Shown here piece after piece: positions 1-4,143 of a stretch of 4,143 bases of DNA. The notes beneath the pieces are model-generated. The model was not told the DNA's origin. It saw nothing but the letters and a program-made list of their open reading frames with translations, and searched no databases. This stretch comes from a virus (lineage: Duplodnaviria; Heunggongvirae; Uroviricota; Caudoviricetes). Position 1 is the first letter of the stretch; each line of letters starts with the position of its first letter. The DNA lies in IMG/VR virus record IMGVR_UViG_2548877009_000015, one strand, 5' to 3'. Made by a program: the position numbers and the translations under genes.

Positions 1-84
1 ATCACTACCCGCAAAAATAATGACTTCTGTTTCTTTGTGTTTTATGCCGCGTGACTGCTGTTTTACGTTCGGTGCCAGTTTCAT
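1..84 (-). CDS. Hypothetical protein G, 5' partial (first 28 codons); continues beyond the window start
   Basis: ATG at 82-84 overlaps the stop of F and is preceded by AGGGG with a 6-nt spacer. My own translation is MKLAPNVKQQSRGIKHKETEVIIFAGSD with no stop before position 1. Not in the supplied ORF track. Confidence 0.4.
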   Translation of the reverse strand, partial: MKLAPNVKQQSRGIKHKETEVIIFAGSD

Positions 85-380
85 TTTTTACCCCTGAATC
101 CGTTAATCATTGTTTTCAGCTTCTGGATGTTTGCCCGTGCTCTGGCGTTGCTGGTGGGCACGTTATGCGGCGCGGTCTGTACCAGAGAAAAATCACGCCG
201 GAACTGATAAACAGGCATCACGCAATCATATTCGTAACCTTCACGGCGGTAAGTTACGCACCGTCCCGCCACGCCCTTAATCATTACCGTACCGCCGTAC
301 TGGTCGCGGTAAATATCACCGCGCGTAAATTTAGGGTGAGTGTTGCCACTGGCAGTTAAGCCAGAATATTTAAGCTTCAT
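81..380 (-). CDS. Hypothetical small protein F, 99 aa
   Basis: ATG at 378-380 with GGAG about 10 nt upstream (inside the last codons of E). TGA stop overlaps the ATG of the next ORF (ATGA at 81-84). Gly/Tyr/Arg-rich, beta-like sequence KFTRGDIYRDQYGGTVMIKGVAGRCVTYRREGYEY. Confidence 0.55.
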   Translation of the reverse strand: MKLKYSGLTASGNTHPKFTRGDIYRDQYGGTVMIKGVAGRCVTYRREGYEYDCVMPVYQFRRDFSLVQTAPHNVPTSNARARANIQKLKTMINGFRGKK

Positions 381-385
381 TATTT

Positions 386-619
386 TTATTCTCCGGTGTG
401 GGGCGCTTTATACTGGTCGTGTAATGTCTCTATTTCCTGCAACTCATTTATTACAGGCTCAAGAAGCGTTATTAATGCCGTGGCAATTCTTGATTTTTGT
501 TTGTCGCGTTCATTGTCGCCAAGTGTTTCAAGCCATATGCGCAATATTTCCATCATATTTTCACTGTGAGAAAGTGCAAGAAATACGCGATCTGTTGTTT
601 CGTGGTAAATATCACGCAT
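386..619 (-). CDS. Hypothetical small protein E, 77 aa
   Basis: ATG at 617-619, 1 nt after the stop of D, with GGGGA upstream. Helical-looking sequence. No family recognised. Confidence 0.55.
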   Translation of the reverse strand: MRDIYHETTDRVFLALSHSENMMEILRIWLETLGDNERDKQKSRIATALITLLEPVINELQEIETLHDQYKAPHTGE

Positions 620-620
620 A

Positions 621-842
621 TTAATCCCCGTCCGTCGCTTTTCTTAAAATAACCTCTGTCACGAAATCAGCATAGTTAGCGGCAATATCAAGAATATTTA
701 GCCCTGTATCTCTGTGCTCATCAGTGCAAAGAAAGAAAAAAGCCACCCGCATAATTTCAGATATTGACGAAAGCGCATCAGCCGCATCATCAGGAACGCC
801 GGAAAATTCCTGTTTCAGGGAATTAAAACGATCATCACGCAT
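621..842 (-). CDS. Hypothetical small protein D, 73 aa
   Basis: ATG at 840-842 directly downstream of the G-run, which can act as a Shine-Dalgarno. TAA stop is separated by 1 nt from the start of E (TAATATG). Confidence 0.5.
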   Translation of the reverse strand: MRDDRFNSLKQEFSGVPDDAADALSSISEIMRVAFFFLCTDEHRDTGLNILDIAANYADFVTEVILRKATDGD

Positions 843-1075
843 AACCCCCCCCCATTTTCACAATCAGCAATCAGGATGGCTTTGGCCTCATTCAGCGCCA
901 TATCAGCACTAAGTTGCATAACCGCCAGCGAATGAGGAACGAAAGCCCCTGCATATTCTGTTTCACTGGTGGCGTGCTTATGCGCCCTGTCAGCAATAAC
1001 AGAAATATCAATAAGCGCGAGCATCAGCGTAGTGAGCGCGGCGGCGGTTGCGTCCGGACGGATGTTATTGCACAT
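815..1075 (-). CDS. Hypothetical small protein C, 86 aa from the internal ATG (track ORF starts at 1132)
   Basis: ATG at 1073-1075 preceded by GGAGGGG with a 6-nt spacer; overlaps the end of B by 11 nt. Contains a hydrophobic stretch AAALTTLMLALIDISVIA. Its C-terminal Gly-Gly-Gly is encoded by the G9 tract. Confidence 0.5.
   Translation of the reverse strand: MCNNIRPDATAAALTTLMLALIDISVIADRAHKHATSETEYAGAFVPHSLAVMQLSADMALNEAKAILIADCENGGGLCVMIVLIP
845..853. repeat. Homopolymer C9 (G9 on the coding strand) at the C/D junction
   Basis: Nine consecutive C at 845-853. On the minus strand it reads GGGGGGGGG-TT-ATG, directly upstream of the start of D and inside the 3' end of C. Confidence 0.9.
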
Positions 1076-1298
1076 GGTGTACCCCTCCGCATTTTTTTTC
1101 GTTAGAAATAAGCGTTCTTCTTTCCTGTTCATCGCTCAGGAATACGCAGACCTCACCGCTAAGGCGTTTAAGTAAGCCGATGATTGCCCCTGATTCGCTG
1201 TCGGTCATCATGCCAGGGTAATCCTCTGCCAGTGCGCAAATAACTTCGATTTGGTGGGCGCGTTCTGCTGCCTGTTGTAGTGTGATTTCCTGGCTCAT
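1065..1298 (-). CDS. Hypothetical small protein B, 77 aa, from the ATG-initiated start (track ORF extends to a TTG at 1355)
   Basis: ATG at 1296-1298 overlaps the stop of A (ATGA) and is preceded by GGAGG with a 7-nt spacer. Acidic, helical-looking MSQEITLQQAAERAHQIEVICALAEDYPG... Confidence 0.55.
   Translation of the reverse strand: MSQEITLQQAAERAHQIEVICALAEDYPGMMTDSESGAIIGLLKRLSGEVCVFLSDEQERRTLISNEKKCGGVHHVQ
1092..1099. repeat. Homopolymer T8 (A8 on the coding strand) at the B/C junction
   Basis: Encodes Lys-Lys (GAA AAA AAA) near the C-terminus of B, immediately upstream of the Shine-Dalgarno of C. Confidence 0.9.
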
Positions 1299-1489
1299 AA
1301 GCCTACCTCCTGACGAATACGGGCGGCAAATACAGCAACACAACCGGACGGGCAACGGTTACGCGCTTCGCGTTCCGTCCAGGCGGTTACGTGGATGATT
1401 TGAGATTCTCCGGCACTCAGTGCCAGAAAACGCCACACAAAGGCCGTTTGTGTGTGTACAAGGTGTGGTATATGATTTACAGCAACCAT
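1295..1489 (-). CDS. Hypothetical small protein A, 64 aa; first gene of the leftward operon
   Basis: ATG at 1487-1489 preceded on the minus strand by AGGAG with a 5-nt spacer. TGA stop overlaps the start of the next ORF (ATGA). His/Cys pattern HIPHLVH...CPSGC. No family recognised. Confidence 0.55.
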   Translation of the reverse strand: MVAVNHIPHLVHTQTAFVWRFLALSAGESQIIHVTAWTEREARNRCPSGCVAVFAARIRQEVGL

Positions 1490-1588: not shown

Positions 1589-1611
1589 ATCGAGTAAAAA
1601 CATAACGCAAT

Positions 1612-1623
1612 AGGTGTACACAT
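1612..1623. promoter_or_regulatory. Operator-like site 2 (AGGTGTACACAT, GTGTACAC palindromic core) overlapping the regulator start codon
   Basis: Shares ATAGGTGTACAC with the reverse complement of site 1; centres are 35 bp apart; the 3' end overlaps the ATG at 1622-1624. Confidence 0.5.
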
Positions 1624-1816
1624 GTCAACGGTTATTAAGCGTGATAAAAAACCAAAGGGAACAGGTAAAGCCCCCCCGTTCCATATGCGAATATCTCCAG
1701 AACTGAAAGAACAGTTTGATAACGAGGCTAGCAATGATGGAGTAAGCCTAGCCAACTGGCTTAAAGAGTTGGGGCGCACTGAACTAAAGCGGCGCGGCAT
1801 AGAACCCAAAGGATAA
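1622..1816 (+). CDS. Ribbon-helix-helix (Arc/MetJ-like) DNA-binding protein, 64 aa; putative repressor of the divergent promoters
   Basis: Basic N-terminal tail KRDKKPKGTGKAPP, then FHMRISPELKEQFDNEASNDGVSLANWLKEL, which fits the beta-strand / helix / Gly-turn / helix pattern of Arc-like proteins. Two palindromic sites lie immediately upstream. AGG 7 nt before the ATG; TAA stop at 1814-1816. Confidence 0.65.
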   Translation: MSTVIKRDKKPKGTGKAPPFHMRISPELKEQFDNEASNDGVSLANWLKELGRTELKRRGIEPKG

Positions 1817-2198: not shown

Positions 2199-2405
2199 TT
2201 AAGCGGTCGTTCCGCGCGCTTCTTGTTCGCGTTCTTTCATCCATGCGATTACGTCTTCCTCATACCATCCGCGACGGCGCAAACCGACACGAAAACCCTG
2301 CGGGAATTCTCCGGCGTTGATCATGCTTTGCAGCGTGCTGTCTGCCTTAATGTGGATAAGTTTTTTTACTTCCTGGCGAAAGATGACTTTTTTGATTGCT
2401 TCCAT
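2199..2405 (-). CDS. alpA: AlpA-family winged-helix transcriptional regulator / excisionase-like protein, 68 aa
   Basis: Translation ...FRQEVKKLIHIKADSTLQSMINAGEFPQGFRVGLRRRGWYEEDVIAWM fits the AlpA/Vis/TorI pattern (R..EV..L....ST......G.FP......G.R..W.e.dv.aW). ATG at 2403-2405 preceded by GAGG with a 9-nt spacer. Same orientation as int. Confidence 0.8.
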   Translation of the reverse strand: MEAIKKVIFRQEVKKLIHIKADSTLQSMINAGEFPQGFRVGLRRRGWYEEDVIAWMKEREQEARGTTA

Positions 2406-2572: not shown

Positions 2573-2803
2573 TTACCGCCATTTTTTTGGCCTGCCTCCG
2601 GTCTTCATGGATGCCGGACGTACAACCTTATCAATACTTACAGCCAGATTTCTGGAAGCCCCACGGGATACCAGGAAATCTACTACCTGTTTTTTTGATG
2701 GGGCCGTCGTTCTGTCCTCCGGATCGTAGGTTGACCAAAATTCATGCTGAACCATCAGGGCCAGTTGCAGCCCGTCGCAATTGCATCTGAAATTTGTTTG
2801 CAT
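2573..2803 (-). CDS. Hypothetical small protein, about 76 aa from the first ATG (track ORF extends to a TTG at 2824)
   Basis: ORF between the int stop and the terminator; its stop (2573-2575) lies 11 nt upstream of the terminator stem. No convincing Shine-Dalgarno before the ATG at 2801-2803, and no recognisable family. Confidence 0.3.
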   Translation of the reverse strand: MQTNFRCNCDGLQLALMVQHEFWSTYDPEDRTTAPSKKQVVDFLVSRGASRNLAVSIDKVVRPASMKTGGRPKKWR

Positions 2804-2901: not shown

Positions 2902-4143
2902 CTAAACGGCTCGGATACCCCTTTTACCACTGGCGAGGGTTACGCCCGTCGCCGCAGCCTCGACAAATTCGCCCCACCAGCGCATAAGCACGATGCGTTT
3001 TTCTATGTAGTTGCTCCGGTTGTATGCCCGTCTGACTTCGTTGGTGTCGACGTGGGCAAGTGCGGCCTCTATTACGTCTGGCTCAAAGCCTTCTTCGTTC
3101 GCTGCTGTGCTGAATATGGCGCGTAATCCATGAGACACCAGCACGCCAGCGAATCCCATGCGTCGTAATGCTGCGTTAGCGGTCTGGCTGTTCATCGGCT
3201 GCTGTGGGTCTTTCAGACTCGGGAAAACATAATCGCGGTGGTGGCTGATTGGTTTCATAGCCTCCAGCACTGCCATAGCCTGGTCACAAAGCGGGATAAC
3301 GTGGTCGCGGCGCATCTTCATGCGTCCGGCGGGTATGGTCCAGCGTTGCGCTTCCATGTCGATTTCTTCCCAGCGTGCCGACGATGCTTCAACGGGACGG
3401 GTTACGGTCAGTAACTGCCATTCAATCAGTAATCTGGTCTGCCGTTCTGTTGCCGATACTGATAAAGCCTGCATAAGCTCCGGCAGCTGTTCGGGGCGGA
3501 TTGTTGGCATATGTTTTTTTACAGGGGAGGGGAACGCCTTACGCACATTCATAGCCGGATTGGCATCAATCATCCCACTATTGGCGGCGTAATCCATTAC
3601 CTCATTTATACGCTGTAAAACTCGCTTGAGCGTTTCCAGGTTGCCACGTTCCTTGATGGGGGTAAGCACCTCAACGAACCTGCGAGCGGTCAGGGTGTCT
3701 ATTGGCGTGTTGCCGATGAACGGGAATACATATTTTTCCAGCGATCGCCAGATGTCTTTAATCGTATTGGGGGCCAGATTCTGGCTGATTTTCACCTGGT
3801 ACCATGCTGTTGCCACATTTTCGAACGTGTTCCCTTGTCTTCGGGCCTCTGTCTCTCTTTTTTGCCTCTCGTGGTCCTGCGGGTCAGTTCCGGCACGAAT
3901 TAACGCCCTGTACTCGCTACGGCGTTTTCTGGCATCAGCCAGGGAAACATCATCAAGCGATCCAAAACTCAGCAATATTCTTTTTTTGTCCGATGGTCGG
4001 TAGTAGGAAAATCTCCAGAGTTTTGATCCGGACGGTTTGATCAGGAGAAAAAGCCCTCCGCCGTCCTGTAGGGTGTATTCCTTTTCTGCTGGTCTGGCTG
4101 CTTTGATCTGTACTGTGGTTAATGGGGGTGTTTTTCTCGCCAT
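2902..4143 (-). CDS. int: Tyrosine recombinase, P4-family phage integrase, 413 aa
   Basis: 413-aa ORF starting MARKTPPLTTVQIKAARP. N-terminal arm-binding-type region (DGGGLFLLIKPSGSKLWRFSYY...SLADARKRR). C-terminal catalytic signature with Arg in TRPVEASSARWEEID, HGLR (HxxR box) and LAHVDTNEVRRAYNRSNYIEKR with the catalytic Tyr, then MRWWGEF. ATG at 4141-4143 (cat on plus), TAG stop at 2902-2904. Confidence 0.95.
   Translation of the reverse strand: MARKTPPLTTVQIKAARPAEKEYTLQDGGGLFLLIKPSGSKLWRFSYYRPSDKKRILLSFGSLDDVSLADARKRRSEYRALIRAGTDPQDHERQKRETEARRQGNTFENVATAWYQVKISQNLAPNTIKDIWRSLEKYVFPFIGNTPIDTLTARRFVEVLTPIKERGNLETLKRVLQRINEVMDYAANSGMIDANPAMNVRKAFPSPVKKHMPTIRPEQLPELMQALSVSATERQTRLLIEWQLLTVTRPVEASSARWEEIDMEAQRWTIPAGRMKMRRDHVIPLCDQAMAVLEAMKPISHHRDYVFPSLKDPQQPMNSQTANAALRRMGFAGVLVSHGLRAIFSTAANEEGFEPDVIEAALAHVDTNEVRRAYNRSNYIEKRIVLMRWWGEFVEAAATGVTLASGKRGIRAV

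Follow-up and report, generated by a model that had tools for sequence, protein, structure and literature searches.

The window analysed here is a stretch of 4,143 nucleotides from a Caudoviricetes virus record (IMG/VR record IMGVR_UViG_2548877009_000015). Its first 1,489 positions carry seven tightly coupled open reading frames (ORFs) on the minus strand, labelled A to G in 5′ to 3′ transcript order, with the letters of an initial annotation. With a probability of roughly 85%, this region is the early operon (regulation and replication) of an EcCICFT073-type phage-inducible chromosomal island (PICI) of Gram-negative bacteria, and a mechanism for its silencing is proposed below. The seven-gene block is the standard early/replication operon of a common Escherichia coli PICI and not a new cargo system. 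The initial annotation had taken it for an undescribed system, but the same operon is known in EcCICFT073 and in CP-933C (O-island 51, OI-51) of E. coli O157:H7, and it occurs in 27% of complete E. coli genomes. The other outcome considered at that stage, ordinary early genes of known satellites with an Icd-like gene followed by primase, is what was found, with an Icd-like protein (A), a DUF4222 protein of the RgdR type (F) and a primase (G) encoded in the same order as in EcCICFT073.

All seven ORFs and their coupling signals can be read directly in the window, as first described. The operon starts with the Icd-like gene A (1295–1489; 64 aa, pI 9.0), preceded by the Shine-Dalgarno sequence AGGAG (1495–1499). 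An ATGA overlap (1295–1298, read on the coding strand) joins A to B (1065–1298; a 77-aa acidic protein), which has GGAGG on its 5′ side (1309–1313). B and C (815–1075; 86 aa) overlap by 11 nt, with GGAGGGG located 6 nt 5′ of the ATG of C, and C and D (621–842; 73 aa, acidic) overlap by 28 nt across a run of nine guanines. D is connected to E (386–619; a 77-aa acidic protein) by TAATATG (617–623), a 5-nt gap separates E from F (81–380; 99 aa, pI 10.2), and F and G share a second ATGA overlap (81–84). G (1–84) contains the first 28 codons of a satellite primase gene (pri-rep) and runs off the edge of the window. The pattern is beyond chance, as had been argued: all six complete ORFs match PHROG families (E values of 3e-28 to 7e-42), and all six are under purifying selection, with pN/pS ratios of 0.27 (A), 0.04 (B), 0.36 (C), 0.44 (D), 0.37 (E) and 0.37 (F) over 6–48 distinct homologous nucleotide sequences per ORF. 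The description of the region as a leftward, translationally coupled early operon of an int-alpA satellite island also holds. It does not lie next to the integrase gene, however, as the alpA-type gene, two opposite-strand genes and a regulatory region intervene.

Three of the products belong to named families (A, F and G), although none of the seven had initially been assigned to one; for B to E, the statement stands that they have no known function. With the Icd-like model NF033153 of NCBIfam, protein A scores 64.9 bits, above the cutoff of 25 (E value 5e-18), over positions 1–48 of the 48 in the profile, and it matches phrog_29966, phrog_1743 and phrog_6196. It is identical over 62 aa to its counterpart in OI-51, and 48–56% identical to those of EcCICFT073 and ATCC 25922. 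The protein is basic and neither hydrophobic nor membrane-like (grand average of hydropathy 0.24).

Protein F passes the Pfam model for DUF4222 (PF13973; 82.1 bits, gathering score 27). It is identical to the proteins of ATCC 25922 and of the closest related record (L001, see below), 96% identical to the DUF4222 protein of OI-51 and 91% identical to that of EcCICFT073. F is the counterpart of RgdR (ECs1581), a 99-aa protein encoded between z1841 and z1842 of OI-51, with the Arg-Gly-Asp (RGD) motif at residues 20–22 (PMC3378721). The motif is kept in F at the same residues, within FTRGDIY. By length, position and motif, the DUF4222 proteins of OI-51 (locus L003) and EcCICFT073 (locus L005) would correspond to ECs1581/RgdR and C1493, respectively. 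[quoted passage not shown] Its listed orthologues include C1493 of CFT073 and ECED1_1787 of ED1a (PMC3378721, PMC10877973), and C1493 likewise activates LEE1 and represses motility (PMC3378721). The structural model of F has a confident core (residues 20–70, with a predicted local distance difference test score (pLDDT) of about 92), in which a small five-stranded barrel is followed by a long basic C-terminal helix. A sequence-profile search of the Protein Data Bank (PDB) with F gave no match at E values up to 10.

The 28 residues of G are identical to the start of a 584-aa primase, the product of a 1755-bp gene, in both L001 and EcCICFT073, and G matches the DNA primase family phrog_864.

The closest record, L001, is 97.7% identical to the window and contains the complete island, of about 10 kb. 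The island begins at tRNA-Pro/yejM with int, a small ORF, a helix-turn-helix (HTH) gene, divergent small genes and the Icd-like gene, annotated there as a host cell division inhibitor, continues with four hypothetical genes, the DUF4222 gene, the 1755-bp primase gene and a prohead protease/major capsid fusion, and ends at yejO. In ATCC 25922 (L002) this island occupies the same site, and its packaging genes are those for major capsid, head-decoration and small-terminase proteins. Behind the shared early operon at tRNA-Pro/yejM the packaging module is swapped: L001 carries a single ClpP-like prohead protease/major capsid fusion (3470–5359), and L002 carries the three separate genes (3147–5723).

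The order of genes in the prototype of Gram-negative PICIs, EcCICFT073 (NC_004431, 1377930–1388654), is the same as in the window, with an HTH/alpA gene, a divergent small regulator, an Icd-like gene (201 bp), four small ORFs (231, 222, 222 and 234 bp), a DUF4222 gene (300 bp) and a primase gene (1755 bp). Identities are 100% for B and the primase N terminus, 94% for E, 91% for F and 78% for D. In comparison, the alleles of A (48%) and C (50%) are more distant, the integrases are only 25% identical, the divergent regulator is of the YlcI/YnfO type instead of the short ribbon-helix-helix (RHH) type of the window, and the island is located in the roxA/phoQ region rather than at tRNA-Pro/yejM. 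CP-933C, which lies between roxA and phoQ in O157:H7, shares A (100% over 62 aa), F (96%, with the RGD motif), E (88%) and C (86%) with the window. It differs in that C and D form a single 154-aa gene (with a run of seven guanines), B is replaced by another small ORF, and the replication gene encodes a RepA-family helicase and not a primase.

Several traits place this island among the PICIs. The int gene is at one end, and the orthologous int genes of L001 and L002 abut tRNA-Pro/yejM. An AlpA-family regulator is located downstream of int, and pri-rep follows the small-gene operon, as judged on the 28 codons in the window. The related islands in L001 and L002 are about 10–11 kb long, with only capsid-type or terS genes and no tail or lysis genes. 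The P4-like satellite genes psu, delta, sid and epsilon are not annotated in any of the complete relatives L001, L002, L003 and L005. For EcCICFT073 itself, helper-phage-dependent induction, packaging and transfer have been demonstrated (PMC6092414).

When 5426 complete E. coli genomes were searched by megablast with the window, 1574 of them had matches, at up to 99% identity. The operon alone (1–1500) is present in 1443 of these genomes (27%), in up to six copies per genome, almost all of them chromosomal, and the E. coli copies of the module always end in a replication gene, for a primase, a RepA helicase, a DUF927 protein or a DUF5906 protein. A DNA search of a phage collection with positions 1–1600 gave no match.

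The initial annotation had called for a comparison of related islands to separate conserved from variable genes, and the result divides the operon. The comparison set was gathered through the Icd-like protein and contains 13 loci of other Enterobacterales species and 80 IMG/VR loci. In the Escherichia-type loci the frame is constant: the Icd-like gene comes first, and the DUF4222 gene comes last and overlaps a replication gene, which varies among the same four types. Within this frame B, C, D and E behave as a variable cassette. They are present, absent or replaced between loci, with alleles at 35–100% identity, and in a large set of near-identical IMG/VR loci A is followed by another ORF, a B-like gene (53% identical) and then F. 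Outside Escherichia and Shigella, B to F are mostly undetectable, and the Icd-like gene and its regulatory region persist. Because the Icd-like/DUF4222/replication-gene frame is constant and B to E are cassette-like, the operon is a backbone with a variable middle, and not integrase-proximal cargo.

The view first taken of the block, that it is accessory cargo of a variable kind and codes for a new anti-phage, anti-defence or helper-interference system, appears quite improbable in this light. It draws on the middle genes, which are allelic, mosaic and sometimes replaced or absent, and whose products are small, acidic (pI 4.3–5.0), found mainly in Escherichia and Shigella, and without known function; moreover, a related locus in ECOR61, with Icd-like and primase genes, responds to a phage accessory gene with growth arrest. 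Yet the operon frame does not vary among 1443 genomes and is the same in the prototype PICI, and A to G match no defence model in PADLOC-DB v2 at E values up to 0.1. The block is also located between the regulatory region and the primase gene and is coupled to the latter, whereas the defence hotspots of satellites are laid out otherwise. The more variable stretch of this island family is 1500–2200, which accounts for most of the uncovered query and contains the genes that differ most. A different kind of cargo, in which F (RgdR) and its neighbours would reprogramme virulence and motility genes of the host, is also unlikely. It would account for the 96% identity of F to the OI-51 DUF4222 protein (taken to be RgdR) with its RGD motif, for the effects of RgdR and C1493 on LEE1 and motility, and for the PerC-type regulators in related islands. 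In strains that lack LEE, however, homologues of F are found at the same position, where they overlap the replication gene, and the DNA binding of RgdR is non-specific. The conserved position argues for a role of F in the cycle of the satellite itself, with the host effects as a by-product.

The middle genes are related to those of other islands to very different degrees. B matches phrog_1478 (3e-28) and is identical over 74 aa to the copies in EcCICFT073 and ATCC 25922, but it is missing from many related loci. C (phrog_5146) is identical to its homologue in L001, 86% identical to that in O157 and 50% identical to that in EcCICFT073; D (phrog_24341) is 78% identical to the EcCICFT073 copy. 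E matches phrog_2196 (6e-38), with identities of 94% to EcCICFT073 and 88% to CP-933C. Homologues of B to E are essentially limited to E. coli and Shigella, and those of D are found almost only there. Profile-profile comparison of the four with each other revealed no similarity, so they are not detectable paralogues. Our best guess, and the weakest step of the interpretation, is that these allelic acidic proteins bind helper-phage or host proteins, as their acidic nature and size, the mosaic of their alleles and their restriction to few hosts may suggest.

C and D are, by comparison with their homologues, two halves of one gene, which is toggled between fused and split forms by a poly-G run (845–853 on the minus strand, G9 on the coding strand). 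The family phrog_2512 (154 positions) spans both halves, with C covering positions 1–77 and D positions 78–145. O157:H7 annotates C-D as a single 154-aa coding sequence, fused forms of 150–154 aa are common, and database proteins of 150/151 aa, of 86 aa and of 79 aa each occur frequently. The run was compared at 37 junctions, from 36 related loci and the window (counted under G9). It is G8 in 16 (with two further runs of equal length that are interrupted), G9 in nine, G7 in nine and G11 in one. With G7, C and D share one frame and are fused. G10 would also fuse the two by frame; no G10 is present among the 37 junctions, yet fused proteins reading ENGGGV imply that it exists. With G8, C ends in ENGGGYA, and with G9 it has the tail LCVMIVLIP seen in the window. 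D retains its own ATG just 3′ of the run in every split state. The variation of the run among close relatives may be real hypervariability, but part of it could be homopolymer sequencing error.

An AlphaFold2 model was calculated for the fused protein P0089, which is 100% identical to C of the window over 88% of its length, from an alignment of 25 sequences, all from E. coli. The model is all-helical, with five helices, at low confidence (mean pLDDT 46.9). Of the fused B-C-D product that had been envisaged, only the C-D part is retained. A fusion of B to C by slippage on the A8 run at their junction was considered and rejected: the run shows no length variation in 14 loci, and none of 120 listed homologues of C has the length expected of such a fusion. 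Other joins are seen among database proteins, in which the Icd-like domain is fused directly to C (P0096) or C is fused to a different, E-like C-terminal half (P0141). Judging from these fusions, the small genes appear to behave as shufflable modules.

The regulatory region on the 5′ side of A contains a candidate leftward sigma-70 promoter (1599–1628, minus strand). It consists of TTGACA (1628–1623), an 18-nt spacer and TATGTT (1604–1599), with 10 of 12 consensus matches, and is the best minus-strand match to the sigma-70 consensus in positions 1–2900, from which its function is predicted. The TTGAC of the −35 element is kept beside the second operator in related loci of several genera, as inspected by eye. 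Two operator-like palindromes flank the promoter, AGGTGTACACCT (1577–1588) on one side and AGGTGTACACAT (1612–1623) on the other. The latter abuts the ATG of a divergent gene (1622–1816, plus strand) for a 64-aa Arc/RHH-like protein, the candidate repressor. This protein matches the Arc-like repressor family phrog_228 (6e-6), and it has a weak HicB match (19 bits, below the cutoff of 21). In EcCICFT073 and ATCC 25922 the same position is held by YlcI/YnfO-family genes.

Loci with another regulator allele have another palindrome pair in the same place, for example GGTAATTACC in L003, TACGTACGTA in L013 and TTGTAATTACAA in L017. A palindrome pair that differs with the regulator allele has the look of a specific repressor/operator pair, with binding as a prediction, and suggests that the palindromes and the divergent RHH/YlcI-type regulator are exchanged together as specificity modules. 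According to the work on EcCICFT073, AlpA is a helper-induced activator of the island genes on which induction depends, replication that is uncontrolled requires pri and int, and a master repressor of Gram-negative PICIs is not known (PMC6092414).

The start of A is also covered by a candidate cis-antisense RNA of about 80 nt on the plus strand (approximately 1481–1560, or 1466–1566 with its own −10 element and terminator), supported by its predicted fold and by covariation. The RNA spans the start codon (1487–1489) and the Shine-Dalgarno site of A, and is preceded by the −10-like hexamer TATGAT (1471–1476). The plus strand of this segment folds into two hairpins with a free energy of −31.4 kcal/mol and a z score of −3.35, compared to a z score of −1.44 for the mRNA strand. 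The first hairpin, P1 (AACCAUAACG/CGUUGUUGGU), presents GCUCCUAGUUUA in its loop, the complement of the Shine-Dalgarno sequence of A. The second, P2, is GC-rich and is followed by UUUGCUUUUUU, and P2 and this U-run together form a terminator. The same hairpin architecture is present 5′ of Icd-like genes in Escherichia, Shigella, Rahnella, Superficieibacter, Enterobacter, Pectobacterium, Rosenbergiella, Intestinirhabdus and Acerihabitans.

Covariation was assessed over 48 distinct sequences, with 500 shuffles and five measures, and none of the 500 shuffles reached the observed value of any measure. In helix 2, 11 of the 13 pairs have changed on both sides, and 99.2% of the cells are paired. The whole structure is 87.9% paired, compared to 38–49% when the partners are slid. 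There is also a clear strand signal. Helix 2 contains 89 G-U cells and no A-C cells and is 84.8% paired when read on the mRNA strand, and in helix 1 the four outermost pairs reach 100% pairing, versus 87% on the mRNA strand. The antisense strand is also the one that carries the U-run. The structure is assigned to the antisense strand on account of the G-U cells without A-C cells, the higher pairing and the U-run. A leader RNA of the C4/CI type on the same strand as A was rejected on the same G-U count and U-run, and it is also opposed by the absence of any match to the Rfam C4 antisense RNA at E values up to 1.

A TAnnnT hexamer (TATGCT, TATGAT, TAGACT or TATAAT) is found in all 30 distinct upstream contexts, 10 nt (27 cases) or 4 nt (three cases) ahead of the complement of the start codon of A, and in some E. 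coli alleles the extended −10 element is complete, such as TGGTATAAT in ATCC 25922. A covariance model of the RNA matches essentially every Icd-like locus with upstream sequence, including EcCICFT073 (8767–8860 of L005, 63 bits). It also matches the Klebsiella satellite vB_KppS-Ant, which lies outside the training set, with 72 bits, and has no match in a 49-kb control from CFT073. No Rfam family was found at its gathering score; the best match is SymR (1484–1555), with 26.8 bits against 61 and an E value of 0.044. Nor was a published small RNA at the start of an Icd-like gene found in the literature searched, the coverage of which was incomplete. The conserved hairpin-hairpin-terminator RNA is thus put forward as an unreported candidate, a comparative prediction.

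In vB_KppS-Ant (L099, LR881103), the single match of A in a tblastn search against phages, the annotated 324-aa 'hypothetical protein' (8578–9552) includes the antisense-RNA motif (9286–9377, minus strand), directly before the Icd-like part (9379–9525). This coding sequence is probably over-extended, and the true Icd-like gene is probably short. A second copy of the RNA module is located upstream of the main one in L001 (10232–10323), with no annotated Icd-like gene behind it, and second copies are also present in L032, L062, L066, L071, L083, L091 and L093. Such copies could be what is left of tandem regulatory modules, or could serve as decoys.

These elements suggest how the operon would be controlled, and the antisense RNA, the divergent repressor and the paired operators probably gate it together. 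In the resting island, the divergent RHH-type protein would repress the leftward promoter through the two flanking palindromic operators, which it probably binds. Should any A mRNA be made, the antisense RNA, produced constitutively, would pair with that mRNA over its ribosome-binding site and start codon. As B to G are chained to A by translational coupling, a block of A translation should silence the whole operon: with A untranslated there would be little translation of B to G, the primase included, and probably premature termination as well. Induction by a helper phage (via AlpA, according to the literature on EcCICFT073) would raise transcription until the RNA is outrun. On expression, A would bring division or growth to a halt, F, with its basic Tudor/KOW-like barrel, would act as a low-specificity regulator associated with DNA or RNA polymerase, and primase G would replicate the island. 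We tentatively propose that the antisense RNA and an RHH/YlcI-type repressor with allele-specific operators make up the missing immunity switch of Gram-negative PICIs and of cf-PICIs (the capsid-forming kind), which would silence the coupled operon until helper induction, with the C-D toggle and B to E as the helper- or host-specific effectors then released. This proposal is possible, at somewhat less than even odds.

By analogy, such a switch would be a cis-antisense counterpart of the RNA immunity of P1 (C4/icd) and P4 (CI). In the immI region of phages P1 and P7, the C4 RNA reportedly targets the translation start of icd, and blocking icd translation is said to silence the coupled downstream gene ant (work attributed to Citron and Schuster, Biere et al. 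1992 and Riedel et al. 1993). The window resembles immI in having an Icd-family first ORF, a small structured RNA (here a candidate) aimed at the start of that ORF, and coupled downstream genes. On the other hand, C4 is encoded upstream on the same strand and acts in a trans-like manner through sites a2 and b2, whereas the candidate here is cis-antisense; the downstream gene of immI is an antirepressor and those of the window are replication genes; and the Rfam C4 model has no match in the window.

Icd-like genes are found in most P4-like, PICI and cf-PICI elements of Enterobacter cloacae (PMC13612085). In the prophage-encoded superinfection-exclusion locus of ECOR61, which contains six genes including Icd-like and primase genes, a phage accessory gene triggers growth arrest, and this arrest requires the Icd-like gene (10.1101/2023.04.06.535777). 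The linkage of an Icd-like protein and a DNA primase is shared with the window, as far as the description of the locus allows the comparison, but the ECOR61 Icd-like protein has a long N-terminal extension that is absent from A.

The Icd-like gene and its antisense RNA could instead be primarily a type I toxin-antitoxin or abortive-infection module and not a gate for replication genes. We regard this as somewhat unlikely. The layout would be that of a type I pair, with the translation start of a small protein covered by a cis-encoded structured RNA candidate, the pair is kept in genera where B to F are undetectable, some loci have extra, orphan copies of the RNA module, and there is the weak SymR-like match. 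SymR is, like the candidate, a cis-encoded RNA of about 77–80 nt over the 5′ untranslated region, Shine-Dalgarno sequence and start codon, with a similar two-hairpin architecture. Its score, however, is far below the gathering score and the candidate is not a member of that family, A has no relation to SymE and is the first of seven genes in its operon, and A always stands at the head of an operon that ends in a replication gene. In addition, A is unlike most type I toxins in not being hydrophobic, and its toxicity is putative. A toxin-antitoxin function is also compatible with the gating model and does not exclude it.

Several points weigh against the identification of the block as a silenced PICI early operon. 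The window includes no more than 28 codons of the primase gene, and what else the island contains is predicted from its relatives; the operon of the window is known from sequence alone. The mosaic presence and absence of B to E shows that they are not strictly required parts of a backbone, and B to E have no credible match in Pfam or NCBIfam and none in PADLOC. For C-D, a PDB sequence-profile search gave no match at E values up to 10, and the AlphaFold2 model of the fused form is too uncertain for a fold search. The evidence for the antisense RNA is comparative. Its −35 element is weak (TTGTGT), its −10 element overlaps coding sequence, such that part of the conservation could reflect constraint on the protein, and the inner stem of helix 1 does not have a single register across alleles (75% of the cells are paired). 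Finally, the link of AlpA to the leftward promoter is taken over from EcCICFT073 and would hold here by analogy.

Beyond the operon, the window contains the gene for the tyrosine integrase (int, 2902–4143, minus strand), which marks one end of the island, a 76-aa ORF (2573–2803, minus strand), and the 68-aa HTH/AlpA-type gene (2199–2405, minus strand), which is 90% identical to an 'AlpA family transcriptional regulator' of ATCC 25922 and is named by this identity. A 67-aa ORF on the plus strand (1874–2077) matches phrog_21027 (2e-11). This ORF has weak matches to Cas8g models (NCBIfam and PADLOC; 16.8 bits against an NCBIfam cutoff of 125), which are almost certainly due to chance. Positions 1500–2200 are the least conserved part of the window among its relatives, and a scan of the window for tRNA and tmRNA genes found none.

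The segment 5′ of the alpA-type gene (2406–2570) contains tandem 20-nt direct repeats (2472–2491 and 2492–2511, 85% alike) and 10-nt repeats (2421–2430 and 2431–2440), possible sites for autoactivation by AlpA or for a helper factor. The gene is bracketed by a perfect 14-nt inverted repeat, GCCGCTTTTTTTAT/ATAAAAAAAGCGGC (2162–2175 and 2537–2550), and both arms belong to terminator-like hairpins. With this flanking arrangement, alpA looks like a transcription unit of its own, separate from the A to G operon.

The operon is the backbone early operon of a satellite family that roughly one in four sequenced E. coli carry, CFT073, ATCC 25922 and O157:H7 among them. B to E are among the commonest E. 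coli genes without known function, and the islands that carry them are experimentally tractable. The fused/split toggle of C-D at the poly-G run and the antisense-RNA candidate with its repressor/operator partner should be recorded in their own right. If the proposed control is true, the antisense RNA and the repressor/operator pair would explain the silence of Gram-negative PICIs and the restraint of the putatively toxic Icd-like product.

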